Shown here: positions 19,829 through 37,126 of the stretch, piece after piece
Layout: every line of letters begins with the position of its first letter
Numbering within the stretch: the first letter of the stretch is position 1
Virus genome (UHGV): UHGV-0369712
DNA length: 37,622 nucleotides
Source of the DNA: a virus
Reading direction: 5' to 3' (one strand)
Notes under the pieces: model-generated
The model's database searches: none
The model's input: the letters and a program-made list of their open reading frames with translations, nothing else
What the model was told of the DNA's origin: nothing
Made by a program: the position numbers and the translations under genes

Positions 19829-19830
19829 CA

Positions 19831-22180: not shown

Positions 22181-22758
22181 GCGCAGAACTCATGCGACTG
22201 CTGAGCAACATCATTCGCACCGGGATCATCTCTGAAGTTGATGAGAAGTCCTGGCGCGTGCGCGTTCGCAGCGGCGAACTGGAAACAGGCTGGTTGCGCT
22301 GGAACACCACGCGCGCGGGAGCCTTCAATGTGTGGCTGCCGCCATCACCAGGCGAACAGGTGGTAATTGCCTGCATTGGCGGCAACCCGGAAACCGCCAT
22401 GATAATTGGCAGCCTGTGGAGTGATGCCATTCCGGCCCCCGGCAAAAGCCTGAAAGAAATCGTGGTCAGCGCGCCGGATGGCGCGGTGTTCCGCTACGAC
22501 GCGGCCGCAGGCGCACTGAGCGCCAGCGGCATGAAAACAGCCACCCTGCAGGCATCCGTCAGTGTGACACTGGATACGCCTGTCGTGGAATGCACAGACC
22601 TTCTGAGAACAGCGACGCTTGACGTCACAAAAGGGGGAACGATGAGCGGCAATATCACGCACAGCGGCGGCAATTTCACCTCAAACGGCATCACAGTGCA
22701 TACGCATAAACACGGTGGCGTTAAAGGTGGCAGCGATTCGACAGGAGGCCCGCAGTGA
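22177..22758 (+). CDS. V: baseplate spike / assembly protein (P2 gpV-like)
   Basis: 193 aa; IRTGII...G...WL.W and C-terminal THKH motif as in P2 V; GTG start overlapping the S stop. Confidence 0.85.
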   Translation: MSAELMRLLSNIIRTGIISEVDEKSWRVRVRSGELETGWLRWNTTRAGAFNVWLPPSPGEQVVIACIGGNPETAMIIGSLWSDAIPAPGKSLKEIVVSAPDGAVFRYDAAAGALSASGMKTATLQASVSVTLDTPVVECTDLLRTATLDVTKGGTMSGNITHSGGNFTSNGITVHTHKHGGVKGGSDSTGGPQ

Positions 22759-23105
22759 CAACCCGCTACACAGGAATGAACCAGGACGGAACGGGAAACC
22801 TGAACGATATGGAGCACCTGAAACAGTCAGTCAGGGACATCCTGACCACCCCGCTGGCCAGCCGGGTTATGCGACGGGAATATGGCAGCCTTGTGCCTGA
22901 TTTGATTGACGAACCCATGAATAACACCACGCGTCTGCAATGCATGAGTGCTGCCGTGATTGCGCTGACACGATGGGAACCCCGCATTGCCCTGGATGCC
23001 ATCGACGTTGTCTGGAAAGCGGGAGGCCGCGCCGGGGTGACGCTGTCGGGCACTGTCATGCAGACCATGCAGAATGTTGAGTTAACCATCACGCTGAGGG
23101 AGTAA
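22755..23105 (+). CDS. W: baseplate wedge protein (P2 gpW, GPW/gp25 family)
   Basis: 116 aa (P2 W is 115 aa) at the W position. Confidence 0.85.
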   Translation: MTTRYTGMNQDGTGNLNDMEHLKQSVRDILTTPLASRVMRREYGSLVPDLIDEPMNNTTRLQCMSAAVIALTRWEPRIALDAIDVVWKAGGRAGVTLSGTVMQTMQNVELTITLRE

Positions 23106-23108
23106 ATC

Positions 23109-24005
23109 ATGCCCGCCGTTGACCTTTCCCAGTTACCGGACCCCGCCATCATCGCGGAGCCTGACTTTGAAGCAATTCTGGCTGACACAAAAGCCATGAT
23201 GATTGCGTCCTATCCCGCCGAACAGCGTGAAGCCGTTTCCGCCGCGCTGGAGCTGGAATCGGAACCCCTTAACGTTATCGCTCAAACCATGTCGTTTCGT
23301 GAAATGCTGTTACGCCAGCGGGTTAATGAGGGCGCACGCGCCTGTATGTTAAGCCACGGTTCAGGGACAAACCTGGACAACCTCGCGGGCAATATGAACA
23401 CAAAGCGCCTGGTTATCACTCCGGCAACGGATACCACCGACGCGGTGATGGAGAGCGACACCTCGCTGAGACTGCGGGCGCAGCGGGCGTACGACGGCCT
23501 GAGTGTTGCTGGCCCGTCAGGTGCATACGAGTATTTTGCCCGCAGCGCCAGCGGTCTGGTGCGTGATGCGCGGGCTATCAGTCCGTCTCCGGCCAACGTG
23601 ACGGTTTCCATCCTGTCCACTGAAGGCGACGGCACAGCAACGGAGGCGTTGCTTAATACCGTTCGCGCCGTTCTGAATGCAGAGGATACCCGCCCGGTGG
23701 CCGACCGCCTTACTGTACAGAGCGCCAGAATCGTGACATGGCGGCTGAATGCAAAACTGTACTTTTACCCCGGCCCGGAATCCGAACCTATTCTGGCCGC
23801 GGCGGAATCGTCATTCAGGAAGTGGCTGGCTGAACAGGGGCTTATCGGTCAGGACGTGGCGTTGTCCGCCATTGCTGCCGCACTGCATGTGCACGGTGTG
23901 CAACGCGTGGAGATAATCGAACCCACACAGAATATGGCCATCAGCGACATACAGGCGGCGCGCTGTGAGTCATTCACCATCAGCGAAGGTGGGCGCAATG
24001 AGTAA
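23109..24005 (+). CDS. J: baseplate protein (P2 gpJ-like)
   Basis: 298 aa (P2 J is ~302 aa), ordered after W. Confidence 0.85.
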   Translation: MPAVDLSQLPDPAIIAEPDFEAILADTKAMMIASYPAEQREAVSAALELESEPLNVIAQTMSFREMLLRQRVNEGARACMLSHGSGTNLDNLAGNMNTKRLVITPATDTTDAVMESDTSLRLRAQRAYDGLSVAGPSGAYEYFARSASGLVRDARAISPSPANVTVSILSTEGDGTATEALLNTVRAVLNAEDTRPVADRLTVQSARIVTWRLNAKLYFYPGPESEPILAAAESSFRKWLAEQGLIGQDVALSAIAAALHVHGVQRVEIIEPTQNMAISDIQAARCESFTISEGGRNE

Positions 24006-24528
24006 TTCGTTGTTACCACCATCAGCCAGCAATTTCATGCGTTGCGCCGAAGCCGTCGGAACACGCATTACAGACATTCCGGTAGACCTCAACACGCTGT
24101 GGTCGCCGGACACATGCCCGGCGCATCTGCTGCCTTATCTCGCCTGGGCGTTTTCCGTTGACCGCTGGGATCGCAACTGGCCGGAAGAGACAAAGCGACA
24201 GGTGATTCGTGATGCATGGCTGATACACCGACACAAGGGAACCATCAGCGCACTGCGCCGGGCCATTGAGCCGCTGGGATACCTCATTCGCGTGTCTGAG
24301 TGGTGGGAGTTCGGCGGAGAACCGGGAACATTTACCGTTGAAGTCGGCACGCTGGACAGTGGCGTGACGGAGGAAATGTATCTGGAAATGGAGCGGTTGA
24401 TAGCTGATGCCCGCCCGGTCAGCCGCCACATGACAGGGCTGAATATCATTCAGGAAATTCCGGGAGATATTTTCGCGGCGGCAGCAACTTATGACGGTGA
24501 AGTTATTACCATTTATCCGGACGATTAA
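23998..24528 (+). CDS. I: baseplate / tail-fibre attachment protein (P2 gpI-like)
   Basis: 176 aa from MSNSLLPPSASNF; ATG overlaps the J stop. Confidence 0.8.
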   Translation: MSNSLLPPSASNFMRCAEAVGTRITDIPVDLNTLWSPDTCPAHLLPYLAWAFSVDRWDRNWPEETKRQVIRDAWLIHRHKGTISALRRAIEPLGYLIRVSEWWEFGGEPGTFTVEVGTLDSGVTEEMYLEMERLIADARPVSRHMTGLNIIQEIPGDIFAAAATYDGEVITIYPDD

Positions 24529-24530
24529 GC

Positions 24531-26681
24531 ATGAGTACCACAACACGAAAATTTAAAACCGTTATCACCGATACGGGTGCAAAAAAATTAGCTCAGGCAG
24601 CCGCGCCAGATGGTAAGCCCGTCCGCCTGACTCATATGGCCGTGGGCGACGGTGGCGGCACGTTGCCCACACCAGACAGTAAGCAGACCCGTCTGGTGCA
24701 TGAGGTGTGGCGACACACTGTTAATCGCGTCATCCTGGACGCAACACATCAGAACCGCATTATTGCGGAGCTGGTTATTCCTCCTGAAACGGGCGGATTC
24801 TGGATCCGGGAAATTGGTGTGTTTGATGAGCACGGCGATTTAATCGCGGTGGGCAATACTGCCGAAAGTTACAAGCCAACTGTTGCCGAAGGGTCCGGAC
24901 GTGCACAAACATTTCGCACCATTCTGACCGTATCCAGCACAGCCACCGTAGCGCTTACCGTGGATAGCACCATGGTGATGGCCACAGTGGATTACGTGGA
25001 TGACAAACTGAAAGAGCATGAACAGTCACGACGTCACCCGGACGCCTCGCTGACCGCAAAAGGCTTTGTTCAACTCAGTAGCGCCACTAACAGCGTGTCT
25101 GAAACGCAGGCTGCAACGCCGAAAGCAGTAAAGGCAGCGTATGACCTTGCTAACGGTAAATATACTGCGCAGGATGCCAGCACGACGCGAAAAGGCCTTG
25201 TCCAGCTCAGTAGCGCCACCAACAGCACGTCTGAAACGCAGGCTGCAACGCCGAAAGCAGTAAAGGCCGCGTATGACCTTGCTAACGCAAAATATACCGC
25301 TCAGGACGCCACGACGGCACAAAAAGGGATAGTCCAGCTCAGTAGTGCCACCAACAGCACGTCTGAAACACTGGCCGCGACATCGAAAGCGGTTAAGGCG
25401 GTAATGGATGAAACGAACAAGAAAGCGCCCTTAAACAGTCCTGCGCTGACCGGAACGCCAACAACACCAACTGCGCGACAGGGAACGAATAATACCCAAA
25501 TCGCAAACACGGCTTTCGTTATGGCTGCGATTGCCGCCCTTGTAGATTCGTCACCTGATGCACTGAACACGCTGAACGAGCTGGCGGCGGCGTTGGGCAA
25601 CGACCCGAATTTTGCGACCACCATGACTAACGCGCTTGCGGGTAAGCAACCGAAAGATGCCACCCTGACGGCGCTGGCCGGGCTTGCTACTGCGGCAGAC
25701 AGGTTTCCGTATTTTACGGGGAATGATGTCGCCAGCCTGGCAACTCTGACAAAAGTCGGGCGGGATATTCTTGCGAAATCGACCGTTGCCGCCGTTATCG
25801 AATACCTCGGTTTACAGGAAACGGTAAACAGGGCTGGTAACGCCGTGCAAAAAAATGGCGATACCTTGTCCGGTGGGCTTACTTTTGAAAATGACTCAAT
25901 CCTTGCCTGGATTCGAAATACTGACTGGGCGAAGATTGGATTTAAAAATGATGCTGATGGTGACACTGATTCATACATGTGGTTTGAAACAGGCGACAAC
26001 GGCAATGAATATTTCAAATGGAGAAGCCGCCAGAGCACCACAACAAAAGACCTGATGACGCTGAAATGGGATGCACTAAATATTCTGGTAAATGCCGTCA
26101 TTAATGGCAGTCTTGGAGTTGGTACGACGAATGCGTTAGGTGGTAGCTCTATTGTTCTTGGTGATAATGACACCGGATTCAAACAGAATGGTGATGGTAT
26201 TCTGGATGTTTACGCTAATAGTCAGCGAGTATTCCGCTTTCAGAATGGAGTTGCTATTGCTTTTAAAAACATTCAGGCAGGTGATAGTAAAAAGTTCTCG
26301 CTATCCAGCTCCAACACCTCCACAAAGAATGCAACGTTTAATTTATGGGGTGCTTCAACCCGTCCAGTAGTTGCAGAGTTAGGCGATGAGGCAGGATGGC
26401 ATTTCTATAGCCAGCGAAATACAGATAACTCGGTAATATTTTCTGTTAACGGTCAGATACAGCCCAGCAACTGGGGGAATTTTGATTCACGCTATGTAAA
26501 AGATGTTCGCCTGGGTACGCGTGTTGTTCAATTGATGGCGCGTGGTGGTCGTTATGAAAAAGCCGGACACGCAATTACCGGATTAAGAATCATTGGTGAA
26601 GTAGATGGCGATGATGAAGCCATCTTCAGACCAATACAAAAATACATCAATGGCACATGGTATAACGTCGCACAGGTATAA
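24531..26681 (+). CDS. H: tail fibre protein (P2 gpH-like); C-terminal part lies inside the invertible segment
   Basis: 716 aa, very similar throughout to P2 H as I recall it (N-terminus KFKTVITDTGAKKLAQAAAP..., C-terminus RPIQKYINGTWYNVAQV); contains tandem 44-aa repeats and a gix-like site. Confidence 0.9.
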   Translation: MSTTTRKFKTVITDTGAKKLAQAAAPDGKPVRLTHMAVGDGGGTLPTPDSKQTRLVHEVWRHTVNRVILDATHQNRIIAELVIPPETGGFWIREIGVFDEHGDLIAVGNTAESYKPTVAEGSGRAQTFRTILTVSSTATVALTVDSTMVMATVDYVDDKLKEHEQSRRHPDASLTAKGFVQLSSATNSVSETQAATPKAVKAAYDLANGKYTAQDASTTRKGLVQLSSATNSTSETQAATPKAVKAAYDLANAKYTAQDATTAQKGIVQLSSATNSTSETLAATSKAVKAVMDETNKKAPLNSPALTGTPTTPTARQGTNNTQIANTAFVMAAIAALVDSSPDALNTLNELAAALGNDPNFATTMTNALAGKQPKDATLTALAGLATAADRFPYFTGNDVASLATLTKVGRDILAKSTVAAVIEYLGLQETVNRAGNAVQKNGDTLSGGLTFENDSILAWIRNTDWAKIGFKNDADGDTDSYMWFETGDNGNEYFKWRSRQSTTTKDLMTLKWDALNILVNAVINGSLGVGTTNALGGSSIVLGDNDTGFKQNGDGILDVYANSQRVFRFQNGVAIAFKNIQAGDSKKFSLSSSNTSTKNATFNLWGASTRPVVAELGDEAGWHFYSQRNTDNSVIFSVNGQIQPSNWGNFDSRYVKDVRLGTRVVQLMARGGRYEKAGHAITGLRIIGEVDGDDEAIFRPIQKYINGTWYNVAQV
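25056..25420 (+). repeat. about 2.75 tandem copies of a 132-bp (44-aa) in-frame repeat within H
   Basis: KG[FLI]VQLSSATNS[VT]SET[QL]AAT[PS]KAVKA... repeated with a 132-bp period (units near 25062, 25194, 25326). Confidence 0.8.
25794..25819. other. gix/hix-like recombination site 1 (left inverted repeat of the invertible tail-fibre segment), inside H
   Basis: TTATCGAATACCTCGGTTTACAGGAA; 22/26 match to the reverse complement of site 2; close to the Mu gix consensus TTATCCAAAACCTCGGTTTACAGGAA as I recall it. Confidence 0.7.
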
Positions 26682-26684
26682 ATT

Positions 26685-27212
26685 ATGCAGCATTTAAAAA
26701 ATATTAAGTCCGGAAATCCAAAAACAAAAGAACAATATCAGCTAACAAAGAATTTTGATGTTATCTGGTTATGGTCCGAAGACGGTAAAAACTGGTATGA
26801 GGAAGTAAATAACTTTCAGGACGACACCATAAAGATTGTATACGACGAAAATAATATTATTGTTGCCATAACCAAAGATGCCTCAACGCTTAATCCCGAA
26901 GGCTTTAGTGTCGTTGAGATTCCCGATATAACAGCCAATCGTCGTGCCGATGATTCAGGGAAGTGGATGTTTAAGGACGGAGCTGTGGTTAAGCGGATTT
27001 ATACAGCAGACGAACAGCAACAACAGGCCGAATCACAAAAGGTCGCGTTGCTTTCTGAAGCTGAAAGCGTTATTCAGCCACTGGAACGCGCTGTCAGGCT
27101 GAATATGGCGACGGATGAGGAACGCACACGACTGGAGTCATGGGAACGCTACAGCGTTCTGGTCAGCCGTGTGGATACAGCAAATCCCGAATGGCCACAA
27201 AAGCCTGAGTAA
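26685..27212 (+). CDS. G: tail fibre assembly chaperone (P2 gpG-like)
   Basis: 175 aa; [40 protein letters not shown] closely resembles P2 G. Confidence 0.9.
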
Positions 27213-27240
27213 AAATTAAGGCCCAATATCGGGCCTTCCC

Positions 27241-27774
27241 TCATTCTGGTTGTTCGGGAAACGTTACTGGCAGGCTGGAGGTGTCTGTAGATTCGACTTT
27301 CTGCGCATAGAGCATCCACTCGGTTAATTTTTGTTTATTCTCGTCGGAAATGATGCCCAGCCGTAGCTGTGAGTCCCATAGCTGGGTTTTATCCCTGACA
27401 AGTTGCAACAGGCTTTGCTTTTCATTTTCCGCTTGTTGCCTCTGCTCTTCCTCGGTATAAGTTCGCTTTATCACTACGCCATCTTTGAACAACCATTTCC
27501 CCGAAATATCAGCCCGGCGATTTGCTGTAATATCAGGTAATTCAACGACGCTTGCGCCTTCCGGATTAATTGCTGAAACATCCTTTTCAATACAAATAAT
27601 AACGCCGTTATGGTCATAGACCATTTTCAAAGTGTCTGGCTGGAAATTCTTTTGTTCCTCATACCAGTTTTTTCCATCATCTGAATAAAGCCATTTGATG
27701 TTAAATTGCTTTGTTAGCTGGTATTGCTCTTTTGTTTTAGGGTTGCCAGTAGTAATGTTTTTTAAGTGCATCAT
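27241..27774 (-). CDS. alternative tail fibre assembly chaperone (G')
   Basis: 177 aa; N-terminal half paralogous to G ([23 protein letters not shown]...), C-terminus divergent; inverted relative to G. Confidence 0.8.
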   Translation of the reverse strand: MMHLKNITTGNPKTKEQYQLTKQFNIKWLYSDDGKNWYEEQKNFQPDTLKMVYDHNGVIICIEKDVSAINPEGASVVELPDITANRRADISGKWLFKDGVVIKRTYTEEEQRQQAENEKQSLLQLVRDKTQLWDSQLRLGIISDENKQKLTEWMLYAQKVESTDTSSLPVTFPEQPE

Positions 27775-27776
27775 CG

Positions 27777-28490
27777 TTAAATACTCCCCGCGTTATACCA
27801 CGTCCCATTAATGCAATACTGAATTGGCCTTGCCTGAGTTGTATCAATTAATTCATCACGGTTTCCGTTAACTGAACCCGTAACGACATAACCTGACCTG
27901 TCAGACCAGCCGGGACCATTCCATGTCTGAACAGATGACAGACCGCCAAGGCGAATACCTGTAATAAACCTTGAGTTACATTCTGCCTGCGTGTATGCAC
28001 CAACATCTCCCGCAGAGGGTTTGCGGGTCGTGGTGTAAAACTCTGACCAGTCGGCTTCAAAACCATAACCATCACGGGCTGAACGATAAAAAATACCGCC
28101 ATTTTTATAATTAATCCGAAACTGAGCTGCAGGACAACTTCCTTCTCCCATATAAAAATGAATAATTAACGTTGATGCACCACTAATAGTTGCGTTATAG
28201 GCTCCGCTACTCCAGTTCCATCCAACTGCTTTATCATTCGCAACGGTGCTTCCTGTTTTCCCTAAGGCAAACGCACCAACATGACTTGCTTTTAATGTGA
28301 TATCGGAGGAACCATCAAAAGCCACATTGCTTATTTTCCTGGCAGTTTTTAATTTTGCAGCTGTAGAAGCATTGCCGGATAGTTCACCAGAAAGGCCACC
28401 GCTGAATGTTTGTCGATTAGTCCAGGTATTCGCTGTACTGAGTAACGGTATTTTCTCCCCGCTTGTGCCGAGTTCTCGTAAACCGAGGTT
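27777..28490 (-). CDS. promoterless alternative tail-fibre C-terminal cassette (Hv')
   Basis: Minus-strand frame open from 28490 with no canonical start; C-terminus RPIQYCINGTWYNAGSI parallels the H C-terminus; its 5' end carries gix-like site 2 in the same codon phase (L-G-L) as site 1 in H. Confidence 0.75.
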   Translation of the reverse strand, partial: NLGLRELGTSGEKIPLLSTANTWTNRQTFSGGLSGELSGNASTAAKLKTARKISNVAFDGSSDITLKASHVGAFALGKTGSTVANDKAVGWNWSSGAYNATISGASTLIIHFYMGEGSCPAAQFRINYKNGGIFYRSARDGYGFEADWSEFYTTTRKPSAGDVGAYTQAECNSRFITGIRLGGLSSVQTWNGPGWSDRSGYVVTGSVNGNRDELIDTTQARPIQYCINGTWYNAGSI

Positions 28491-28498
28491 TTAGATAA
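28473..28498. other. gix/hix-like recombination site 2 (right inverted repeat)
   Basis: TTCTCGTAAACCGAGGTTTTAGATAA; inverted relative to site 1; about 35-60 bp upstream of the invertase gene. Confidence 0.7.
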
Positions 28499-28534
28499 TG
28501 GCCGTTTCTGACCTGCATGGCATGATTTACGCTT

Positions 28535-29152
28535 TTGGACGGGAGATTCAGCGTGCTGATTGGCTATGTAAGGGTATCAACAAATGACCAGAATACAGAC
28601 CTGCAACGAAACGCTCTTGTTTGTGCAGGATGTGAACAAATATTTGAAGATAAATTAAGCGGGACAAAGACAGACCGACCGGGATTAAAACGCGCTTTAA
28701 AGCGCCTTCAAAAAGGTGACACGCTGGTTGTCTGGAAACTGGATCGCCTCGGGCGAAGCATGAAACATCTGATTTCTCTCGTCGGGGAACTACGGGAGCG
28801 AGGGATTAATTTTCGCAGTCTGACCGACAGCATAGATACATCTTCTCCAATGGGGCGTTTTTTCTTCCACGTGATGGGTGCCCTGGCTGAAATGGAACGT
28901 GAATTAATTGTTGAACGTACACTGGCCGGACTGGCGGCAGCGCGTGCACGGGGGCGCACAGGCGGACGTCGACCGAAGCTGACAAAAGAACAGCATGAGC
29001 AAATAGCAAGGCTGATCAAAAACGGGCACGACAGAAAACAACTGGCAATAATTTACGGCATTGGCATATCGACGATTTATCGTTATCACCCTGTAGGCGA
29101 TATACAGGCTGAAGAAACAACCAGGCAGACTCAGGAAAATGAAAACCGCTAA
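28535..29152 (+). CDS. serine DNA invertase, Gin/Cin/Pin/Hin family
   Basis: ...LIGYVRVSTNDQNTDLQRNALVCAGCEQIFEDKLSGT...GRRPKLT... is nearly identical in its N-terminal two-thirds to Mu Gin as I recall it (catalytic Ser in VRVST); C-terminal HTH; true start may be GTG 28556 (MLIGY...) rather than ATG 28535. Confidence 0.9.
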   Translation: MDGRFSVLIGYVRVSTNDQNTDLQRNALVCAGCEQIFEDKLSGTKTDRPGLKRALKRLQKGDTLVVWKLDRLGRSMKHLISLVGELRERGINFRSLTDSIDTSSPMGRFFFHVMGALAEMERELIVERTLAGLAAARARGRTGGRRPKLTKEQHEQIARLIKNGHDRKQLAIIYGIGISTIYRYHPVGDIQAEETTRQTQENENR

Positions 29153-29171
29153 TCTGACCATTAGCGGTTTT
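29144..29171. terminator. hairpin between the convergent invertase and U genes (possible bidirectional terminator)
   Basis: AACCGCTAA-(8 nt)-TTAGCGGTT 9-bp stem followed by a short T tract; overlaps the invertase stop codon. Confidence 0.4.
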
Positions 29172-29178
29172 GCGTTAA

Positions 29179-29673
29179 TCAAAACAGCCCTTTAACGGAG
29201 CTGGCCGCGCTGTTAAGGGATGATGTGACCTTATCTTTGAAGCCGGACAGCATATCACTGAACGATGAGGATTGCAGGCGCTCCCGCAAATCCTCATCAC
29301 AGCGTTCAAGGGTCAGTGAAAATTCTATCTTTTTCGCCTTACCGTAGCGATCAAACTCGGAACGGGTCGTATTCGTTCCGGTCAGGACATACATGCCGTA
29401 AATCTGCCCGACGCCATCAATCAGAGGCCAGGGGCGTCCTGTATACGCCTGCGTGGTCAGCAGCGACAGCGACACTTCGCCACCTGTAATTTCAGGATAA
29501 AGCACACCAGAAAGAACGATGCGATCATCACCTGCACCGATATACTGCCAGCTTGCTGAACGGTTAACGCGTTCATTTTTCACATGCCGCCAGCTTTTGT
29601 TTTGCTGTAACTGCTGATGCGGCAGCGTGCGCAGCTCAAAAACAAACATGCCGTAGATCATCATCATGGCCAT
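29179..29673 (-). CDS. U: tail protein U (P2 gpU-like)
   Basis: 164 aa; MFVFELRT...WRH..N.RV.R...WQY.G.G.D...L.GVL.PEITGG resembles P2 U. Confidence 0.85.
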   Translation of the reverse strand: MAMMMIYGMFVFELRTLPHQQLQQNKSWRHVKNERVNRSASWQYIGAGDDRIVLSGVLYPEITGGEVSLSLLTTQAYTGRPWPLIDGVGQIYGMYVLTGTNTTRSEFDRYGKAKKIEFSLTLERCDEDLRERLQSSSFSDMLSGFKDKVTSSLNSAASSVKGLF

Positions 29674-29679
29674 GACTCC

Positions 29680-32523
29680 TCAATCTTTATCGTAAAAACT
29701 GCCACGCCCGGCACGGGTGCGCCGTTCCATTTCTGCCCTGACCATTTCACCGACCAGTTTCGCCAGTTCGCGGGGATTCTGCGTAACAACGTTATGCAGA
29801 TGAACATGAATTTCACCACCAAATCCGGAGGCAACAGGCTCCCGGTTACGGGAAGTTACAGGAACTGATGCCACTGGAGATCGTATAGCCTCCGCCACCG
29901 GGCGGGAGCTGGCCGCAACAACAGGGACCAGCGCCGGAGGCAGCGGAGCCGGGACCACGGGTGTGATATTAATTGCGGGGGCAGGCTTACTGACCTGCGC
30001 AATCTTCCGCTCCTGCCACTCCCCACGAACAGCAAGTGCTCGGGGCAGGTTTTTAAAGACAATATCGCCGGGGCCAATGCGTTTTTTCGTCTCCTCAACC
30101 AGCTTACCTGTGTTATCAGCAATTTTGCTGAGTCTGCGCAGCGTACCGGTATTGCTGTCTGTGAGCGGTTTATTGTCTTTGGGGTTATCACCTCCGGTGC
30201 CATTGCCATTTTCCACAGGCTTCGGCGGATTGATTTTCGCCAGGTCCCCCTGAAGCAAGGCAACCTTGTCCTGAAGAATGGCCGCACGCTGTGCGTCTTC
30301 GATTTTCTTGCGCGCCCTTTCCGCTTCATCCGGAAGCACACCAAGCTTTTCAAGTATCCACGCCAGCGTATCCAGCAACATTTTTGCAGGTGTCAGAACA
30401 AGTTGTAACGCACCGCCAAGAACGTTACCGAATATCTCGCCAGCACTGGTACATTTATCCAGAGTTTCCTTGCTGGACTCCATCGGTGACAGCAGCGATT
30501 TAAACCAGTTAAACACCTGGCTGATCCCGCTTCCGATTGCGTCAAAAACAGGGCCAAACCGTTCAAAGGTTTCACGCAACGGGTTCAGCCTTTCCATAAT
30601 CCCGCTGAACACCCCGGCAAAAAATGCCCTGATGGGATCCCAGTATTTCCAGATAAGAACGGCAGCTCCGGCAAGCGCAGCCACGATAAGACCAACCGGA
30701 CTGAACAGCGCCCCGATAGCGCCTCCCAGCAAAGAAACGGAACCCGTCAGCATTCCCCACAGCGCAGGCAACACCCTGACGACATTCATTGACCGGGTAA
30801 GAATGTCAAAACCAAGACGCAGGGTGGCCAGCTTTCCGTAAAGCACCCCAATAACCAGCGACAACGAGCCAATCGTTGCAGTCATTGCCAGCAACGCACC
30901 GCCTGCTATCAGTAGCTGGCGTGTCAGTACCGGATGGGCCTGCGCCAGCGAGGTGATTTTTTCAAGCACCCGCGTGAGCCACTGCGTGACAGAACGCAGC
31001 GGACCGTCAACCAGATCACTGATGCGAATACGAAGACCTTCCCATGCGCTGTCGAGATTTTTCAGGTCCCCATCAAGATTATCGGCCATTACTTTTGCAA
31101 CGCGATCGGCCTCTCCCCTTGCCCCCTGCAATTCTCTGGTCAGTTTTTGCAGCTCTCCTGAACCAGCCGCCGCAACAAGCGTCTGCAAACCAACGAACGC
31201 CTCTTCTCCGGCGATGTCCTTGAAGAAGGAGACCTGGTCCACCTGTCCGTATTTTTGTGTCGCCTTATAGAGATCAAGCAGCACATCCTCCATCGGGCGC
31301 ATTTTGCCTCTGGCGTCAGCAACTGACACCCCCAGCTCTTTCAGTGCATCAGCCGCAGCTTTTGGCGGTGATGCAAGGCGGGACAGACTTGCGCGCATGG
31401 CCGTGCCAGCATCGCTTCCGCGAAGACCATTATTGGCAAGCATCCCGGCCATGGCCGCCGCTTCTTCAAGACTGATACCAAGTTTTGCGGCAACCGGACC
31501 GGTATACTTCATGGTTTCGCCCAGCGCGCGTAAATCAGTATTGGTCCGGGTAAATGCTGCTGTCAGCGTATCGCCCACCCGGTCCATTTGATCGGCTGTC
31601 AGGTTGAACTGTGTGAGGATATTGGAGCCTATATCCGCCGTCTCGCCGAGTTCGACGCCACCTGCCAGCGCCATATTAAGAACACCGGGCAATGCGGCCT
31701 GAATGGCCTGCGGAGTAAAACCAGCCATTGCCAGAAAGCTCTGCCCACTGGCGGCATCACTCGCAGTAAACTGTGTTTCAGAGCCAAGTTTTAACGCCTG
31801 CTCACGCAGCGCCTTAAACTGCGGGCTGTTTTTGTCGATTCGCGTCAGTGCCTGAACGCGGGACATCTCTTTGCCGAACCCGATCGCAGGCTGCAAAAAA
31901 CGCCCGGCAGCATAGCCGCCCGCCGCTGCCGCACCAATTGCCAGCGCACCACCTGTTTTCAGTTTTCCCGCGGTTTCCTGCGCGCGCGAATACCGCTCAC
32001 GCGCCCGCGTTACACGCGCAAGCGCCTGCCGTTCGCGTTCAAGCTGGTTGTTGTACTGTTCGGTGCGTCTGATGGCCTGCTGGATGGTGTTATCGCTGCC
32101 TGTCAGGGAAATGCCGTGGCGTTTCAGCTCTCCGCCAAGCTCCCGCATTTTCTGAATTTCCCGTGTGCGCGATTCATTCAGGCGTTCAAGCCGGGTGCTT
32201 AACTGCTGCATCAGCTTTTGTTGTTTTTCGCTGAGCACTGTACCCGTGCGTTGTAACTGATTAAGGGCGTTAAGCTGGCGTCGTGCTTTCACGATACCCG
32301 CATCCGCTTTACTGACAGCGTCGCGGGCGCGCTCAAATGATCGCGCCTGACGCTCGAGATTTTTGATCGCCCCCTGCGTTCGCTGGATGGAGTCACCAAA
32401 CTGCCCCATCAGGCGGCGGGCGTTTTCGGCAGGCCGGGTCAGCCTGTCAACGGCGCTGAAAGCGACCCGGATATCAAGAGTCTTCATTGTCTGCATTCCC
32501 GCTGCGAAGTGCCGCCCGCTCAC
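29680..32523 (-). CDS. T: tail tape measure protein (P2 gpT-like)
   Basis: 947 aa; long coiled-coil N-terminus, glycine-rich hydrophobic central segments; follows E/E'. Start may be an internal Met (M10 or M13) because the annotated start overlaps E'. Confidence 0.85.
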   Translation of the reverse strand: MSGRHFAAGMQTMKTLDIRVAFSAVDRLTRPAENARRLMGQFGDSIQRTQGAIKNLERQARSFERARDAVSKADAGIVKARRQLNALNQLQRTGTVLSEKQQKLMQQLSTRLERLNESRTREIQKMRELGGELKRHGISLTGSDNTIQQAIRRTEQYNNQLERERQALARVTRARERYSRAQETAGKLKTGGALAIGAAAAGGYAAGRFLQPAIGFGKEMSRVQALTRIDKNSPQFKALREQALKLGSETQFTASDAASGQSFLAMAGFTPQAIQAALPGVLNMALAGGVELGETADIGSNILTQFNLTADQMDRVGDTLTAAFTRTNTDLRALGETMKYTGPVAAKLGISLEEAAAMAGMLANNGLRGSDAGTAMRASLSRLASPPKAAADALKELGVSVADARGKMRPMEDVLLDLYKATQKYGQVDQVSFFKDIAGEEAFVGLQTLVAAAGSGELQKLTRELQGARGEADRVAKVMADNLDGDLKNLDSAWEGLRIRISDLVDGPLRSVTQWLTRVLEKITSLAQAHPVLTRQLLIAGGALLAMTATIGSLSLVIGVLYGKLATLRLGFDILTRSMNVVRVLPALWGMLTGSVSLLGGAIGALFSPVGLIVAALAGAAVLIWKYWDPIRAFFAGVFSGIMERLNPLRETFERFGPVFDAIGSGISQVFNWFKSLLSPMESSKETLDKCTSAGEIFGNVLGGALQLVLTPAKMLLDTLAWILEKLGVLPDEAERARKKIEDAQRAAILQDKVALLQGDLAKINPPKPVENGNGTGGDNPKDNKPLTDSNTGTLRRLSKIADNTGKLVEETKKRIGPGDIVFKNLPRALAVRGEWQERKIAQVSKPAPAINITPVVPAPLPPALVPVVAASSRPVAEAIRSPVASVPVTSRNREPVASGFGGEIHVHLHNVVTQNPRELAKLVGEMVRAEMERRTRAGRGSFYDKD

Positions 32524-33003
32524 GCCAGCTAACCACTTCGCCGGGCGTCATCATGAAGATTTCGGCGGGCGACCAGTTAAAAATGGCGGCAATATCCGCC
32601 ACAAAGTCTTCTATGTGCTCAAAGCACACAACCGTGATCAGGCTTCCGTCGCCTGTTCGTTCTTCCCGCCAGAGTCCGCACCGCTCAAAAAATTTACGGC
32701 AACCACACATAACTGAATAAAATCACGGGATGCCATTTTTTTGATCGTCACTTCATCCAGTCGCGGTGATGTCACGCGTGACAGCAGCGTAAACATGGAT
32801 TCCGCTTTCAGATTCAGCACATCAGACAGCGACAAATCTCGCAGAGATCCAGCCTGCTCAATAGCCCCGGTGATCTCCACATACGTGATTTTTTCGCCGC
32901 CTCGCTCAATTGGTTGGGTAAGTTTTACGCCACGCTCACTGGTTTCTTTCACAGTGTCAGCAACGACCGTGTTTTCGGTATCGATGTTTTTCGTCTCTTT
33001 CAT
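32474..33003 (-). CDS. E+E' tail assembly chaperone produced by programmed -1 ribosomal frameshift
   Basis: Slippery sequence AAATTTTTTG within E; the -1 frame continues as ...FFERCGLWREERTGDGS... to the stop at 32474, the conserved G/GT-type arrangement between tube and tape-measure genes. Confidence 0.7.
32638..33003 (-). CDS. E: tail assembly chaperone E (P2 gpE-like)
   Basis: 121 aa; ends shortly after the slippery heptamer T TTT TTG (plus-strand 32686-32692). Confidence 0.8.
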   Translation of the reverse strand: MKETKNIDTENTVVADTVKETSERGVKLTQPIERGGEKITYVEITGAIEQAGSLRDLSLSDVLNLKAESMFTLLSRVTSPRLDEVTIKKMASRDFIQLCVVAVNFLSGADSGGKNEQATEA

Positions 33004-33057
33004 CAGGAAACTCCTTTCAGTCAGAGGCGACGCACTGCGCCGCCTGCATATTACTTA

Positions 33058-33570
33058 TCAGCCAAGCCCGAGCGCGGAACGGATGCGATCGGGCACAATG
33101 TCCTTGCCGTCCTTCCGGTAAATGAAGTTCAGCAGGTCAATCTCCCACAACGGGCGATCGTTAACACTCAGCTTGTAGTAGGTGTTTTTAATGGCGTAAG
33201 TGTGTGATGTGGCTTCGCCCTGTTTGGCTTCCCCCATATCAATTTCCGTCACACGTCCGCGCATTTCGACTTCATACAGGTCGCTTTCTGCATCGGTGTA
33301 GTATTCACCCGCAAAACGCAGCAGCGTGCCGTCAATCGTGCCGCCATACTTAAGGAACAGCTCACGAACTGCGCCCCCCATGACAAAGCTCGCATCAAGC
33401 GCGGAGTCGTCCAGACCGAGATCAATACTTACCGCACCCATCATGCCACCACCCCGGTAGCTGTCGGTTTTGCGCGTCAGCTTAGGCAGAGTGACGGACG
33501 TCACCTTACCCACTTCGTTTTCACCATCCACAAACAGCGTAAAAAAGCGAAGATGTTTTGGTACAGCCAT
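33058..33570 (-). CDS. FII: tail tube protein (P2 gpFII-like)
   Basis: 170 aa; VTLPKLTRK...YRG.GM.G...DLGLDD and RFAG.Y resemble P2 FII. Confidence 0.9.
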   Translation of the reverse strand: MAVPKHLRFFTLFVDGENEVGKVTSVTLPKLTRKTDSYRGGGMMGAVSIDLGLDDSALDASFVMGGAVRELFLKYGGTIDGTLLRFAGEYYTDAESDLYEVEMRGRVTEIDMGEAKQGEATSHTYAIKNTYYKLSVNDRPLWEIDLLNFIYRKDGKDIVPDRIRSALGLG

Positions 33571-34754
33571 CAGGCACCTCCCAGCACCGCAAATGCGGGA
33601 CCAAAGAATTCATCAGTAAACGACTGGTAAAGCTCCATGTCTTCCAGCGGGGGAACAGGCGTATATTTGTAGCGAATACGCACGCGCCCCTGACGTAAAT
33701 TCGTGGTGCTGTTATCCACGATGTCATACCAGCACTCCGCGCCAATCAGTTTCCCGGCAGTAACCAGTGAATCCAGTTTTGCCCTGATGGCACTGATAAC
33801 ATCTTTCACGTTCGCAGGCGTCAGTGGACTGTCGATGGTTTCAAACTGCGCTTCCGCAATTGAATCAGCCAGCACCTGTGCGGTTCGGGTATACACCTCA
33901 AAGATGTAGGCGTTCGTTTCCGGTGTGCGGTTGCCCCAGAAGCGGAACCCGTTGCGACGAATAATGGTCGTGATTTCTTTGTTGTTGAGGCTGTTGGCAT
34001 CACTGTCTTCGGCCTGCAACGACCAGAACACATGCCTGGACATCCCCAGCACATTTTTAACCGGAACGTTGGACAGCGATTTGTGCCAGCCCTGCTCATG
34101 GTCAATGTACGCACGAAGGCCGCACGCATAGGCAGGCGCGGGGAACGTTTCGTTTTTGCCACTTTTCGGGTTGTAGGCGATGAAGTCCGGCCATAAGAGC
34201 ATCACCTCACGCTCGTTGAATTTCTGGCGGTAGGTAATCGCCTCAGCCATCGTGTTGCAGCCGTGACATGAGGCATACACAAACGCGCGCAGTTTACCCG
34301 CAATCACGCACAGGGATTTTGTTACCGCCTCCGTGTCCAGCTCCGGCGCGGCCAGAATACGCGGACGGTATCCGATGCTTTCATCCTGCTCTGCAACAAG
34401 CAGCGCATACATCCCCGTATAGCTGCCGTCATCCTCAGAACCACCGATAACCAGTTGATCCTGCGTCTTTCCGTCTTCTTCTTTGTGTTCAGCCACGCGA
34501 ACGACGATCACCTTTGTGCTCACCTGGTCTGCGATGGCCTTAAGCGCACGATAAAGCGTCCCCGTTGTTCCGCATTTTCCCAGCACGTCATTGACGCGGG
34601 TCAGCAGTGTGGGCTTGTTCAGCGGGAACAGCTCCGCATCCGCATCATCCGCCGTTGCCACGATACCGATAACACTGGAATCAACATCATTAATCGCTGT
34701 TACCAGGTCGGTACTTTCCGTAACACGGGCACCATGAAAACGAGTTTCACTCAT
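33570..34754 (-). CDS. FI: tail sheath protein (P2 gpFI-like)
   Basis: 394 aa; ATADDADAELFPLNKP, KLRAF.Y, WPDF, IRRNGFRFWGNRT, YTPVPPLE resemble P2 FI. Confidence 0.9.
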   Translation of the reverse strand: MSETRFHGARVTESTDLVTAINDVDSSVIGIVATADDADAELFPLNKPTLLTRVNDVLGKCGTTGTLYRALKAIADQVSTKVIVVRVAEHKEEDGKTQDQLVIGGSEDDGSYTGMYALLVAEQDESIGYRPRILAAPELDTEAVTKSLCVIAGKLRAFVYASCHGCNTMAEAITYRQKFNEREVMLLWPDFIAYNPKSGKNETFPAPAYACGLRAYIDHEQGWHKSLSNVPVKNVLGMSRHVFWSLQAEDSDANSLNNKEITTIIRRNGFRFWGNRTPETNAYIFEVYTRTAQVLADSIAEAQFETIDSPLTPANVKDVISAIRAKLDSLVTAGKLIGAECWYDIVDNSTTNLRQGRVRIRYKYTPVPPLEDMELYQSFTDEFFGPAFAVLGGA

Positions 34755-34902
34755 AGCTTCAGCCCCTTGTATCCGTTAAATGATTCAGCAACAATCATCA
34801 CCCACCACGCGCGTAATCTCACCCCTGCGCTATTCTCCCGCCACGGCGACAACAAAAAGCAGTAACCCACTCCGCACGCACATGCGACCATGCCGCACAG
34901 GG
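34755..34902. promoter_or_regulatory. divergent intergenic region that must hold promoters for the leftward FI operon and rightward D
   Basis: 148-bp non-coding gap between divergent FI and D starts; inferred from gene arrangement; no consensus element confidently read. Confidence 0.35.
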
Positions 34903-36021
34903 AGGGAACAGATGACCGACACCACCATGCAATTGCTCAGTCAGGGCACAGACCCCGTGAAAATGCCGGATTTTGATATTCTCGCGGAGGGTAAAACGCT
35001 GTCCGGCGTGGCAGAGCGCCTGATGAGCCTGTCGCTGACCGACAACCGGGGATTTGAGGCGGACCAGCTCACCATCACGCTGGATGATGCCGATGGCCAG
35101 TTGCAGCTACCGCCACGGGGCGCGCGTCTGACGGTTCTCATTGGCTGGAAAGGGGAACCGCTGACAGAAAAAGGCACTTACATTGTTGATGAAATCGCTC
35201 ACGAAGGACCGCCGGACAGGCTGACTGTTTCAGCCAGAAGCGCAGATTTTCGGGATGAATTTAACGTTAAACGTGAGGTGTCCTGGCATGATGTGACCGT
35301 TGAGCGTGTGGTATCCGCCATCGCTCATCGGTACGGTCTGAAACCACAAATCAGCGAAATGCTGATGGATATCGAAATCGACCACGCCGACCAGACCGAA
35401 GAAAGCGACATGTCCTTTCTTACGCGCATGGCGGAAATGCTGGGCGCAATCACCACGGTAAAAAGCGGTAATCTGTTATTCATTATGCCAGGCGGTGGCG
35501 TGAACGCACAGGGCCAGCCGTTGCCATCGTTCGCCATCACGCGCAGCAGTGGCGATCGCCATCAGTTCCGCATTGCTGACCGCGAAGCGTATACGGGGGT
35601 ACGCGCTTACTGGCTTGATCTTAATTACGGGAAAAAGAAAAAAGTCAGCGTGAAACGCCGCAAACCACCAAAACCCAAAAAGGAGAAAAGCAGCAGCCGT
35701 GAAGGTGATTATATGGAAGGTGCGGAAGGCAATGTGTTTGTGTTACGCAAGACTTATCAGAACGAGCAGGCAGCAAGACGCGCAGCGGCGGCAAAGTGGC
35801 AGCAGCTACAACGCGGAGCCGCATCATTCTCCATCACACTGGCACGTGGACGCGCAGAACTCTACCCCGAAATGCATGGCACGGTAACAGGATTTAAAAG
35901 CGAGATTGATAATCAGGACTGGATTATTGCAAAAGCCGAGCACACCATTGATAACAGTGGCTTTACCACACAGCTTGAGCTTGAGGCAAAAATCCCGGAA
36001 TGGATAGCGGAAACAGAGTGA
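34903..36021 (+). CDS. D: tail protein D (P2 gpD-like)
   Basis: 372 aa from MTDTTMQLLSQGTDP; LSLTDNRGFEADQL, SARSADFR, WHD resemble P2 D; lysine-rich central linker; GGGAGGG RBS before 34903. Confidence 0.85.
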   Translation, partial: REQMTDTTMQLLSQGTDPVKMPDFDILAEGKTLSGVAERLMSLSLTDNRGFEADQLTITLDDADGQLQLPPRGARLTVLIGWKGEPLTEKGTYIVDEIAHEGPPDRLTVSARSADFRDEFNVKREVSWHDVTVERVVSAIAHRYGLKPQISEMLMDIEIDHADQTEESDMSFLTRMAEMLGAITTVKSGNLLFIMPGGGVNAQGQPLPSFAITRSSGDRHQFRIADREAYTGVRAYWLDLNYGKKKKVSVKRRKPPKPKKEKSSSREGDYMEGAEGNVFVLRKTYQNEQAARRAAAAKWQQLQRGAASFSITLARGRAELYPEMHGTVTGFKSEIDNQDWIIAKAEHTIDNSGFTTQLELEAKIPEWIAETE

Positions 36022-36063
36022 GGAACTTAGAATAGCGACAGCACCACGTTAAGGGAGGTCGCT

Positions 36064-36324
36064 ATGTTCCGTTGTCCGCTTTGTGGCGCATCTGCCCGTA
36101 TCCGCACCAGTCGTCCGGAAAATGATTCAAACACCGTGCGGCAAAAGTATTACCAGTGTAACAATCTGGAATGCGGCGTATGCTTCTCAACACTGGAAGC
36201 TTTCCATAAATTCACATCAAAACACGCCTCCGGCGTTCACTCTTCAGAAGGTATCCCGTGGCATGAGCTGCCAGCTTCACACAGGGGAAACAATCAGATG
36301 AGTTTGCCTTTATCTCAGAATTAA
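36064..36324 (+). CDS. ogr: late transcription activator, Ogr/Delta zinc-finger family
   Basis: 86 aa; MFRCPLCGASARIRTSR...YYQCNNLECG gives the C-x2-C...C-x4-C zinc finger characteristic of P2 Ogr / 186 B. Confidence 0.85.
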   Translation: MFRCPLCGASARIRTSRPENDSNTVRQKYYQCNNLECGVCFSTLEAFHKFTSKHASGVHSSEGIPWHELPASHRGNNQMSLPLSQN

Positions 36325-36345
36325 CAAGCAGAATTGCCGGAGTAA

Positions 36346-36460
36346 CAAAAAAGCGATAGATTACGCGCGGGTGCCTTTCGGCTGATGGTCGGAGGGAATA
36401 CCCGAAGGCCAGATGTGGAAAGGCCCCGGAAAACATTTCTGTTTAACCGAGGCCCTAACC
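36346..36460 (+). repeat. copy A of a ~105-115-nt conserved element (leader of the hok-like gene)
   Basis: About 75% identical to 37360-37463 (shared blocks AAAAAAG.ATAGA, CCTTT.GG.GGATGGT.GGAGG, GTTTAACC.AGGCCCTA). Confidence 0.55.
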
Positions 36461-36597
36461 GTCTAACCTTAGCAAGTGATAGGTTAGCGCCTCTCCAACA
36501 AAGGAGCAAGCGCTATGTCGCAAAAATCGCTTACGGCCATCACGTTCTGCGTGACGGTAATCCTCATCATCTGGATGCTGCACGGTTCGCTGTGTGA
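36385..36597 (+). CDS. mok-like overlapping reading frame (candidate translational-coupling ORF for the hok-like toxin)
   Basis: 70-aa ORF starting in the leader and overlapping the toxin ORF out of frame, as in hok/mok loci; coding status uncertain. Confidence 0.3.
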   Translation: MVGGNTRRPDVERPRKTFLFNRGPNRLTLASDRLAPLQQRSKRYVAKIAYGHHVLRDGNPHHLDAARFAV

Positions 36598-36655
36598 AAT
36601 ACGGATGAGCTTCTGGGGAGCGGAGTTTGCGGCGTTCTTACAGTGTAAGCAGTAA
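36515..36655 (+). CDS. Hok/Gef-family type I toxin (46 aa membrane peptide)
   Basis: MSQKSLTAITFCVTVILIIWMLHGSLCEIRMSFWGAEFAAFLQCKQ: N-terminal TM helix then ...SLCEIR...(E)FAAF..., matching the conserved Hok core; AAGGAG RBS 5 nt upstream; under the ORF-track size cutoff. Confidence 0.55.
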   Translation: MSQKSLTAITFCVTVILIIWMLHGSLCEIRMSFWGAEFAAFLQCKQ

Positions 36656-36743
36656 GGAAACCGCGACGGGGAGGCAACTCCCCGTCAATCGGTTGCTAGG
36701 GTAAGGCCGATAAGGCACCCTATCTCATAGGCATGAATAACAA

Positions 36744-36776
36744 CCCCGCAGCGTAAAAACTGCGGGGTTTCTTTTT
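36744..36776 (+). terminator. rho-independent terminator (bidirectional-capable) after the hok-like locus
   Basis: CCCCGCAGCGTAAAAACTGCGGGG hairpin followed by TTTCTTTTT. Confidence 0.65.
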
Positions 36777-36844
36777 GGAACTCTCACTAGCTAGTGAGGC
36801 GTTAACTGCACATAATGCTCGCACAACAAATCAGTTAAAAGAGA

Positions 36845-37126
36845 TTACTCAGCATTCTCCTGCTTCCATTGCCGGATCATTTCATCGGTAACATCACTTT
36901 CATAACATACCACGTCATACCCTCCAGTACGGCTATATGCACTGCGTCCACCACATCTACTACCATTCCTTGCATGATTATACGGACACGCACAATTGCC
37001 TGGATAAGATTCAATGGATTCTTTAATTATTTCTTTCTTGATCTGAGCATCTGACTTTCCTGTTGCTGCATACCCACTAAAAGATACCAAACAAAGGCAG
37101 ATTGCCATTAATAAACCACATCGCAT
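36845..37126 (-). CDS. small secreted cysteine-containing protein, function unknown
   Basis: Preferred start MRCGLLMAICLCLVSFSGYAA (signal-peptide-like), about 93 aa; the longer track ORF (to 37240) has a non-signal N-terminus; AT-rich. Confidence 0.45.
   Translation of the reverse strand: MRCGLLMAICLCLVSFSGYAATGKSDAQIKKEIIKESIESYPGNCACPYNHARNGSRCGGRSAYSRTGGYDVVCYESDVTDEMIRQWKQENAE

Follow-up and report, generated by a model that had tools for sequence, protein, structure and literature searches.

The stretch of DNA analysed here, virus genome UHGV-0369712 of the UHGV collection (37,622 nucleotides, hereafter the window), is on sequence grounds a complete P2-type prophage of the P88-like kind (Xuanwuvirus, Peduoviridae). 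The genes and features of its tail and late control region are the following:

24531-26681, plus strand, gene H (open reading frame list)
25796-28498, no strand assigned, invertible tail-fibre segment, with gixL inside H (25796-25821) and gixR (28473-28498) at its ends
26685-27212, plus strand, gene G (open reading frame list)
28553-29152, plus strand, gene for a Gin/Cin-type serine invertase, convergent with U (Pfam Resolvase and HTH_7)
29179-29673, minus strand, gene for the tail protein gpU, the last of the inverted block (Pfam Phage_P2_GpU, E = 1.5e-38)
29680-32523, minus strand, gene for the tape-measure protein gpT, the longest open reading frame (Pfam PhageMin_Tail, E = 1.6e-56)
32474-32710, minus strand, open reading frame of E', overlapping E and running to 32474 (open reading frame list)
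32638-33003, minus strand, gene for gpE (tblastn with P2 E, E = 1.8e-9)
33058-33570, minus strand, gene for the tail tube protein gpFII (Pfam Phage_tube, E = 7.5e-47)
33570-34754, minus strand, gene for the tail sheath protein gpFI, the first of the inverted operon (three Pfam sheath domains)
34912-36021, plus strand, gene for gpD, baseplate hub or late control protein D (Pfam Phage_GPD)
36064-36324, plus strand, gene for a zinc-finger late activator of the Ogr/Delta family (Pfam Ogr_Delta, E = 5e-14)

The location of FI, FII, E/E', T and U on the minus strand (29179-34754), opposite to H/G and to D-ogr, had been claimed in the first-pass annotation and was borne out by the open reading frame list, by Pfam and by tblastn with the P2 proteins; H, G, the invertase gene, D and ogr are all encoded on the plus strand in the same list. 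The identities to the P2 proteins in tblastn are 46% for FI, 42% for FII, 33% for T, 46% for U, 48% for D and 42% for the Ogr homologue, and all seven homologues, including E, for which no Pfam match was obtained, fall within only 32-48%. The tape-measure gene has two likely start codons, ATG 32487 and ATG 32496, both overlapping the end of E', and its annotated length in P88 is 2808 nt. The start of D at ATG 34912 is preceded by the ribosome-binding site GGGAGGG at 34900-34906 and agrees with the 1110-nt annotation of D in the Citrobacter phage Shae_phiSM (phiSM), and therefore the gap between FI and D is 157 bp long (34755-34911), not 148 bp as first reported. The IetAS cargo sits elsewhere in the window.

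The same genes in the same internal order make up the P2 F operon (pF-FI-FII-E/E'-T-U-D, then ogr), in which FI to D are co-directional, as had been stated earlier and as the P2 record confirms. Such canonical synteny, with FI..U..D in one direction and in one operon, is not what the window contains: the whole of pF-FI..U is turned round and D is split off to head a unit of its own, whereas the D gene of P2 overlaps U by 1 nt and ends the operon. Thus, D is the first gene of a separate transcription unit, and the ogr-like gene, starting 42 nt downstream, follows it directly as in P2. The slippery heptamer TTTTTTG, located in E upstream of T (32692-32686), is also found in P2 E, for which the P2 record carries the equivalent -1 frameshift annotation; the E/E' pair matches the P2-type frameshift chaperone pair, with the -1 shift itself being predicted.

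The inverted layout is shared by the closest relatives. Alignment to P2-like phages, which had been proposed as a check, has shown that the region 27000-37000 is collinear, in the same orientation and at 93-95% nucleotide identity, with P884B11, P88 and phiSM; for P88 and P884B11 the match extends over 96-97% of the region in one or two pieces, at 93.7-95% identity. The strands annotated in P88 and phiSM are identical to those of the window, and all three phages carry H, G, the invertible segment and the invertase on the plus strand, then U-T-E'-E-FII-FI on the minus strand and, again on the plus strand, D, the differences being short insertions and deletions within the invertible segment and, in P88, a D annotated 9 nt shorter. 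Phage P88 has been induced by mitomycin, forms plaques and was imaged by electron microscopy (PMC5285337), and phiSM too is functional, as a temperate phage (PMC6456863); the inverted layout is compatible with functional tails. A more distant form is represented by the Salmonella phages SEN4 and SEN5 (Senquatrovirus), in which the FI..U block is likewise inverted and divergent from D, although D is just 63% identical, and neither the invertase nor the invertible fibre segment is present, so that G converges directly on U. The same orientation in closely related functional phages had been set beforehand as the observation that would mark the layout as a conserved one and, since such phages do have it, the layout is not a fresh rearrangement; of the options listed in the first-pass annotation, that of a lineage-specific arrangement, common to P88, phiSM and SEN5, was the right one.

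Of the 5426 complete E. coli genomes searched, 1358 (~25%) have a contiguous FI/D junction and 621 a contiguous invertase/U junction, both at 95-100% identity in finished genomes. A wrong join or a flipped contig at about 29160 and about 34830, i.e., the assembly artefact that the annotation had listed as a possibility, has the departure from the P2 gene order as the sole point in its favour, and is refuted by the recurrence of both junctions in sequenced phage genomes and in E. coli genomes that were finished independently, several hundred for one junction and more than a thousand for the other. As little credit can be given to programmed, reversible flipping of FI-U after the manner of the tail-fibre segment: the block does adjoin a genuine invertible segment and its invertase, but the simulated flipped U->D junction occurred in none of the 1412 E. 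coli genomes holding its halves, against the 1358 genomes with the observed junction, no recombination sites are present at the borders, and the orientation does not vary within the clade described below. Since the layout is standard in a very common prophage type, there is no reason to mark it as misassembled, as a sign of prophage decay or as an actively switching element, and a P2 specialist would find nothing surprising in it.

The invertase, whose reading frame starts with GTG CTG ATT GGC TAT, has 91-94% nucleotide identity to the G region of Mu/D108 and belongs to the neighbouring tail-fibre switch, apart from the inverted block. This switch, with alternative G' and H' reading frames on the minus strand (27241-28325), is of the kind known as the Mu G segment with Gin and the P1 C segment with Cin, and lies immediately upstream. 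The FI-U block differs from such switches in being separate, in comprising 5.6 kb of essential genes and in never having been found flipped; the features that define a serine-invertase segment, namely 26-bp sites at the borders, occurrence in both orientations and an invertase travelling with the segment, are all missing from it. Searches of the window for further gix sites (up to three mismatches to gixR, and the core pattern) returned only gixL and gixR, with none near 29160 or 34830. The invertase adjoins U in just 6 of 48 inverted loci. Because gix sites flank only the tail-fibre segment and few relatives possess the invertase, the FI-U inversion is unrelated to the adjacent Gin-type enzyme.

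That this one genome was rearranged recently, either through the serine invertase next to the block or through homologous recombination at inverted repeats on both flanks, is suggested by the contiguity of the invertase gene with the block and by a 9-mer inverted match near both borders. The latter had been called weak, and rightly: a match of this kind arises by chance in 10% of shuffles of the junction windows, and in the aligned relatives it lies where the sequence varies; its positions are, however, 29191-29199 and 34772-34780, slightly displaced from those first given. No better repeat flanking the block was found between 26000 and 37622, where the inverted-repeat search returned only short pairs of low identity within coding sequence. 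With the orientation shared by P88, P884B11, phiSM, SEN5 and 47 loci of other genera, with gix sites confined to the two ends of the tail-fibre segment, and with the invertase so rarely next to U, a recent event is very improbable. The earlier suggestion of a large inversion thus holds insofar as the ancestor of the clade underwent one, a single time, while its recent or invertase-mediated origin is unsupported, there being no gix site at the borders and no invertase in SEN5.

The extent of this clade was assessed in other species from the best 80 D loci retrieved by two peptide patterns, one genome per species, of which 71, those showing FI, FII and U together, were counted for orientation. 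All 47 loci with a D 61-99% identical to that of the window were inverted, and all 24 with a D 47-54% identical were co-directional. The inverted loci span about 22 genera of Enterobacterales, the edges of the clade being sampled only as far as the best-80 set reaches; the genes share one direction in P2 and in three outgroup phages, namely Pseudomonas phage Dobby, Mannheimia phiMhaA1 and Ralstonia RSY1. In neighbour-joining trees of D and of FI (without bootstrap), the inverted loci constitute a single clade with no co-directional member, and for this reason a single, ancient and fixed inversion is proposed. Co-directional FI..U..D is therefore a feature of the P2 type and no requirement for Peduoviridae, as the ICTV genera Xuanwuvirus and Senquatrovirus have the inverted form. 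A single ancient inversion provides a clean shared derived character, which separates Xuanwuvirus, Senquatrovirus and their relatives from P2, the 186-type phages and the non-enteric relatives.

No explicit account of the inversion was found in the literature on P88, P2-like phage diversity (a 2026 survey), the prophages of C. rodentium, the P2-like phages of Burkholderia and the genus names, a coverage so limited that this silence is weak evidence, and within the same limited coverage there was no description of its use as a clade-defining character in Peduoviridae or of the shared-operator variant considered below.

The gap between FI and D contains the following predicted elements, with a comparator from the divergent late region between P and O:

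16183-16200, no strand assigned, dyad TCT-N12-ACA(AC) between the divergent late genes P and O (terminase/scaffold), comparator found by sequence match
34794-34799, minus strand, predicted -10 element GATGAT of pF, the late promoter towards FI, in conserved columns
34834-34851 (centre 34842.5), no strand assigned, predicted Ogr/Delta-type activator dyad TCT-N12-ACA, conserved in relatives
34886-34891, plus strand, predicted -10 element GACCAT of the D-ward late promoter, in conserved columns

The dyad lies between the two divergent late genes, its centre being 88.5 nt from the ATG of FI and 69.5 nt from the ATG of D. The P2 F operon likewise has its activator dyad upstream of FI, with the centre of the pF site 83 nt from the FI ATG. 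The left half-site in the window is TCT and not the canonical TGT: an exact search of the window for TGT-N12-ACA gave three matches, none of them in the FI/D or P/O gaps, and the TCT variant was recognised after alignment of relatives, the more distant of which have TGT-N12-ACA. Of 49 inverted loci, 45 have the pattern T(G/C)T-N12-ACA at a distance of 75-88 nt from the FI start codon, and the remaining four lack an exact match. In the alignment, the dyad columns T.T and ACA are invariant against a mean column identity of 40%, and so are the columns of the FI-side -10 element.

A motif nAnnAT is maintained at 44-49 nt on either side of the dyad centre among 44 unique loci. On the FI side, positions 45, 48 and 49 from the centre are A, A and T in 42, 43 and 42 of the 44 relatives, respectively, and on the D side in 42, 34 and 39. 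From these elements, transcription is predicted to start near 34787 towards FI and near 34898 towards D. A scan with the sigma-70 consensus returned no promoter in the 157-bp gap, a result uninformative for activator-dependent promoters. The earlier opinion that D needs a promoter of its own was sound, and a conserved candidate for it is now available in the gap. A conserved alternating CGCGCG block is situated between the dyad and the D-side -10 element.

The same design is known from the divergent pP/pO region of P2, where, according to the P2 record, a single activator site (3057-3087) serves both pP (start 3016) and pO (start 3127), the starts being 55-56 nt either side of the site centre. 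Both regions have one dyad midway between divergent late genes and equidistant -10 elements; the design occurs only at P/O in P2, whereas in the inverted clade a second copy is found at FI/D, with the TCT half-site in the window and with promoters predicted from sequence conservation. SEN4 and SEN5 have TGT-N12-ACA dyads and flanking nAnnnT hexamers in their FI/D and P/O gaps, the P/O dyad of SEN5 being equivalent to that of the window. The 157-bp gap may therefore be regarded as a putative bidirectional, Ogr-dependent late promoter.

Alternatively, the layout could be conserved with D driven independently, by a constitutive or otherwise regulated promoter of its own or through a second activator site in the gap. 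The weak D-side hexamer GACCAT, the TCT half-site and the CGCGCG block, to which no role is assigned, are in line with such independence, but only one conserved dyad is found in the gap, the -10-like positions are kept at identical distances on both sides of it, the geometry fits that of P2 pP/pO with one site for two promoters, and D, as a late structural gene, has to be co-expressed with the tail genes. Independent expression of D is accordingly considered unlikely, and a shared late promoter is preferred.

As to the origin of the inverted block, the ancestor of the clade might also have acquired FI-U from another P2-like phage in reverse orientation. P2-like phages are mosaic, and exchange of tail modules is evident from H and G, which are 84-93% identical to P2, compared with 26-62% for the other late genes. 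However, FI-U has diverged from P2 (32-46%) as much as the neighbouring genes have (48% for D and 44-54% for V, W and J), the identities of D and FI co-vary over the 71 loci (r = 0.97), both trees recover the same clade, and the distance from the dyad to FI is the same as in P2. Although an inversion in situ and an ancient replacement in reverse orientation are not strictly separable, replacement is rated as improbable. The best reading, held with high confidence, is that a single inversion of pF-FI..U, in the common ancestor of a large clade of P2-like phages of Enterobacterales, has since been fixed as the normal layout of that clade, with a putative bidirectional late promoter.

Under the model proposed for this event, the ancestral inversion would have carried the pF promoter and the Ogr-binding dyad along with the operon, placing both beside D. 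The single dyad would then stand between two divergent late promoters, one of them driving FI to U leftwards and the other driving D, and probably ogr too, rightwards, in a design that would be that of the shared P2 pP/pO region. In this model Ogr binding, the transcription starts, the co-transcription of D and ogr and the function of the terminator described below are predictions from the sequence. That the inversion was viable because the Ogr operator dyad activates in both directions, the P2 F operon having been split into an Ogr-dependent FI-U unit and a D-ogr unit, is favoured with moderate confidence. The putative shared-operator promoter would constitute a natural example of an operon split by inversion with its co-regulation kept.

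The leftward transcript would end at a hairpin between the two convergent genes:

29142-29171, no strand assigned, predicted bidirectional intrinsic terminator, hairpin AAAACCGCTAAT-N6-ATTAGCGGTTTT

The hairpin is flanked by a run of A and, on the opposite side, by a run of T, overlaps the stop codon of the invertase gene and may terminate the transcripts of both U and the invertase. The search with Rfam gathering thresholds over 27-37 kb gave no matches, and the hairpin was flagged by the terminator scan, with folding energies of -16.9 kcal/mol (z = -4.2) on the plus strand and -15.9 kcal/mol (z = -3.4) on the minus strand.

The window, a complete P2-type prophage, belongs to the P88-like (Xuanwuvirus) group. 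The inversion of its tail genes is a conserved, clade-wide gene order: the observation is real and its explanation ordinary. The genes were assigned from the list of open reading frames, Pfam matches and tblastn with the P2 proteins, as follows.

206-1207, minus strand, int
6467-9277, plus strand, replication gene A
13321-16118, minus strand, Q and P
16240-27212, plus strand, the run from O through G
28553-29152, plus strand, serine invertase
29179-29673, minus strand, U
29680-32487/32523, minus strand, T
32474-33003, minus strand, E/E'
33058-33570, minus strand, FII
33570-34754, minus strand, FI
34912-36021, plus strand, D
36064-36324, plus strand, Ogr/Delta zinc-finger gene

The first-pass annotation, which had placed FI-U on the strand opposite to its neighbours, is confirmed by these assignments and by the P2 record, where FI, FII, E, T, U and D all run in one direction and D and U overlap by 1 nt. 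The gap between FI and D exists, but measures 157 bp instead of the 148 bp first given, if D starts at the ATG at 34912, a codon preceded by the ribosome-binding site GGGAGGG. An inverted 9-mer near the borders of the block is likewise present, at the corrected positions 29191-29199 and 34772-34780, and an inverted match of such length occurs in 10% of shuffles. U and the invertase converge on a hairpin (29142-29171) with a perfect 12-bp stem, an A-run and a T-run, the folding energies being -16.9 and -15.9 kcal/mol for the two strands (z = -4.2 and -3.4), which is plausibly a bidirectional terminator.

In megablast against phage genomes, the region 27000-37000 was collinear in a single piece, at 93-95% identity, with Xuanwuvirus P884B11, P88 and Citrobacter phage Shae_phiSM, and the strands annotated in these records agree with the window. 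Escherichia phage P88 is mitomycin C-inducible and plaque-forming, with a measured burst size and electron microscopy images (PMC5285337), and phiSM is reported to be temperate and fully functional (PMC6456863). Functional close relatives thus share the orientation, and the layout is conserved rather than a rearrangement, one of the possibilities first raised. The FI/D junction (34455-35210) was contiguous in 1358 of 5426 complete E. coli genomes and the invertase/U junction in 621, whereas a query constructed to represent the flipped arrangement, in which the 3' end of U is fused to the 5' end of D, found its two halves together in none of the 1412 E. coli genomes that contain them. By these counts both an assembly artefact, which had been proposed, and a reversible switch are ruled out. 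In two phage records of P88-like E. coli prophages, NC_049344.1 (520873) and NC_049341.1 (503458), an IS21-family IS100 (transposase plus IstB) is annotated within the matched tail-gene region, and NC_049344.1 lists tape-measure and tail-sheath products twice each; these two prophages are probably defective, if the insertion breaks a tail gene.

A Mu-like invertible tail-fibre segment sits between G and the invertase, delimited by the only gix-type sites found.

25796-25821, gixL, inside H
28473-28498, gixR

No gix-type or comparable recombination site was found at either end of the FI-U block, and an invertase adjoins U in only 6 of the 48 inverted loci (FI..U opposite to D) described below; the suggestion of an invertase-made inversion was therefore rejected. 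The fibre switch shares 91-94% DNA identity with the Mu/D108 G region, segment and invertase together matching Mu/D108/P1. H and G (24531-27212) are 84% and 93% identical to those of P2, with the other late proteins at 26-62%. Since H and G are near P2 and the invertible segment and invertase near Mu/D108/P1, these similarities point to a probable recent exchange of the tail-fibre module.

The spread of the inversion was assessed in the 80 best D-homologue loci of a one-genome-per-species collection, each of which was searched for FI, FII, E, T, U and ogr. Wherever D is at least 61% identical to that of the window, FI..U run opposite to it; at a D identity of 54% or less, the order is always that of P2. 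Of the 71 loci in which FI, FII and U could all be detected, 47 are inverted and 24 co-directional. The assemblies that hold the inverted loci bear the labels Salmonella, Trabulsiella, Symbiopectobacterium, Edwardsiella, Serratia, Erwinia, Enterobacter, Pantoea, Kosakonia, Citrobacter, Pectobacterium, Izhakiella, Brenneria, Klebsiella, Xenorhabdus, Providencia, Rouxiella, Dryocola, Photorhabdus, Hafnia, Yersinia and Morganella. An inverted block, with no invertase, occurs also in Salmonella phage SEN5 (Senquatrovirus), whose D is 63% identical. The distant Peduoviridae examined, Pseudomonas phage Dobby, Mannheimia phiMhaA1 and Ralstonia RSY1, are all co-directional, and therefore the P2 order is ancestral. 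In neighbour-joining trees of both D and FI, rooted on these three and built without bootstrap support, the 48 inverted loci group into a single clade that includes none of the co-directional ones. The identities of D and FI co-vary (r = 0.97; within the inverted clade, r = 0.95), and in tblastn those to P2 are 32-46% for FI-U, 48% for the flanking D and 44-54% for V/W/J, FI-U being as distant from P2 as the genes around them. The simplest reading of these comparisons would be one ancient in-place inversion, passed down vertically along with the neighbouring genes; that the block was instead replaced long ago by one in reverse orientation is an unlikely alternative, which none of the evidence favours. 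One locus (L005, NZ_JBQPOM010000071.1), with a P88-like tail region on a 226-kb contig and D 98% identical to that of the window, bears the Gram-positive label Vagococcus sp. WN89Y, for which contamination or mislabelling is the likeliest explanation.

D has no co-directional gene upstream, and therefore its transcription must start in the 157-bp gap; the earlier claim that it needs its own promoter is sound, and the gap holds a conserved candidate. In an alignment of the gap from 19 diverse clade members the mean column identity was 40%, the invariant columns being the FI start codon, an A-T-x-x-T motif, a CG-rich block, and the T.T and ACA columns of a T(G/C)T-N12-ACA dyad, the known operator form of the Ogr/Delta family. 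The P2 record annotates activator sites corresponding to the dyad. The dyad was found in 45 of 49 loci, at a distance of 75-88 nt from the FI ATG, and in P2 the site centre of pF, the late promoter ahead of FI, lies 83 nt from that codon, which suggests that pF moved together with the FI-U operon. When 44 unique loci were anchored on the dyad centre and read outward both ways, the only strongly conserved distal positions on both sides were A45, A48 and T49, giving hexamers of the form nAnnAT 44-49 nt from the centre. Predicted -10 elements, from conservation around the dyad, are as follows.

34799-34794, minus strand, FI-ward, GATGAT
34886-34891, plus strand, D-ward, GACCAT (weak)

Starts would fall about 56 nt from the dyad centre, near 34787 (FI) and 34898 (D). 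The window half-site is TCT, not TGT, and a sigma-70 scan of the gap detected no promoter.

A single dyad would thus stand between two divergent late promoters, one for FI-U and one for D. The inverted block and a D gene that heads a separate unit set the window apart from the textbook P2 F operon, while its promoter design resembles the P2 pP/pO region, where one activator site (3057-3087) serves both promoters, with starts at 3016 and 3127, the same spacing as predicted here. The TCT-N12-ACAAC variant occurs also in the window's own P/O gap (16183-16202), and in SEN5 both divergent late gaps hold TGT-N12-ACA dyads with flanking nAnnnT hexamers. The layout itself is already known, as it is visible in the deposited, annotated genomes of named functional phages; the literature searched gave no description of the inversion or of a shared FI/D operator, and the latter, as a reading of sequence, may be a modest addition.

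In SEN5 (2993-3091) the dyad centre is separated by only 55.5 and 44.5 nt from the start codons annotated for P and O; the predicted late transcription starts would then fall at or inside these codons, one or both of which may therefore be mis-annotated. Exact TGT-N12-ACA matches number only three in the window, and one of them (TGTCGCAGAGATACAACA; 13047-13064, plus strand) falls in the stretch from the IetS gene to the end of Q, within a 111-aa minus-strand ORF without a defence-family match; it may be a chance match or one more late-type operator. The S-like and V-like genes (21536-22758) overlap at 22177-22180, and no dyad turned up ahead of V, so the separate pV promoter of P2 may be absent and O through G a possible single operon of about 11 kb.

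Between A and the portal gene Q, where P2 has old/tin, two low-GC plus-strand genes (9458-12828; GC 0.39-0.41) match in PADLOC the anti-phage defence proteins IetA (E = 1e-77) and IetS (E = 1e-51) of the IetAS system. The early region holds neighbouring Rfam matches, both on the plus strand and at gathering level, to the isrK Hfq-binding sRNA (5551-5625; 62.8 bits) and to C4 antisense RNA (5661-5748; 78.5 bits), which suggests a P1/P7-style antisense immunity element inside a P2-type prophage. Downstream of ogr, a 46-aa ORF (36515-36655, plus strand; MSQKSLTAITFCVTVILIIWMLHGSLCEIRMSFWGAEFAAFLQCKQ) is Hok/Gef toxin-like; hok/sok gave no Rfam match at gathering level, and P88 has a hok/gef-family 'MokW-like' gene annotated at the equivalent position.
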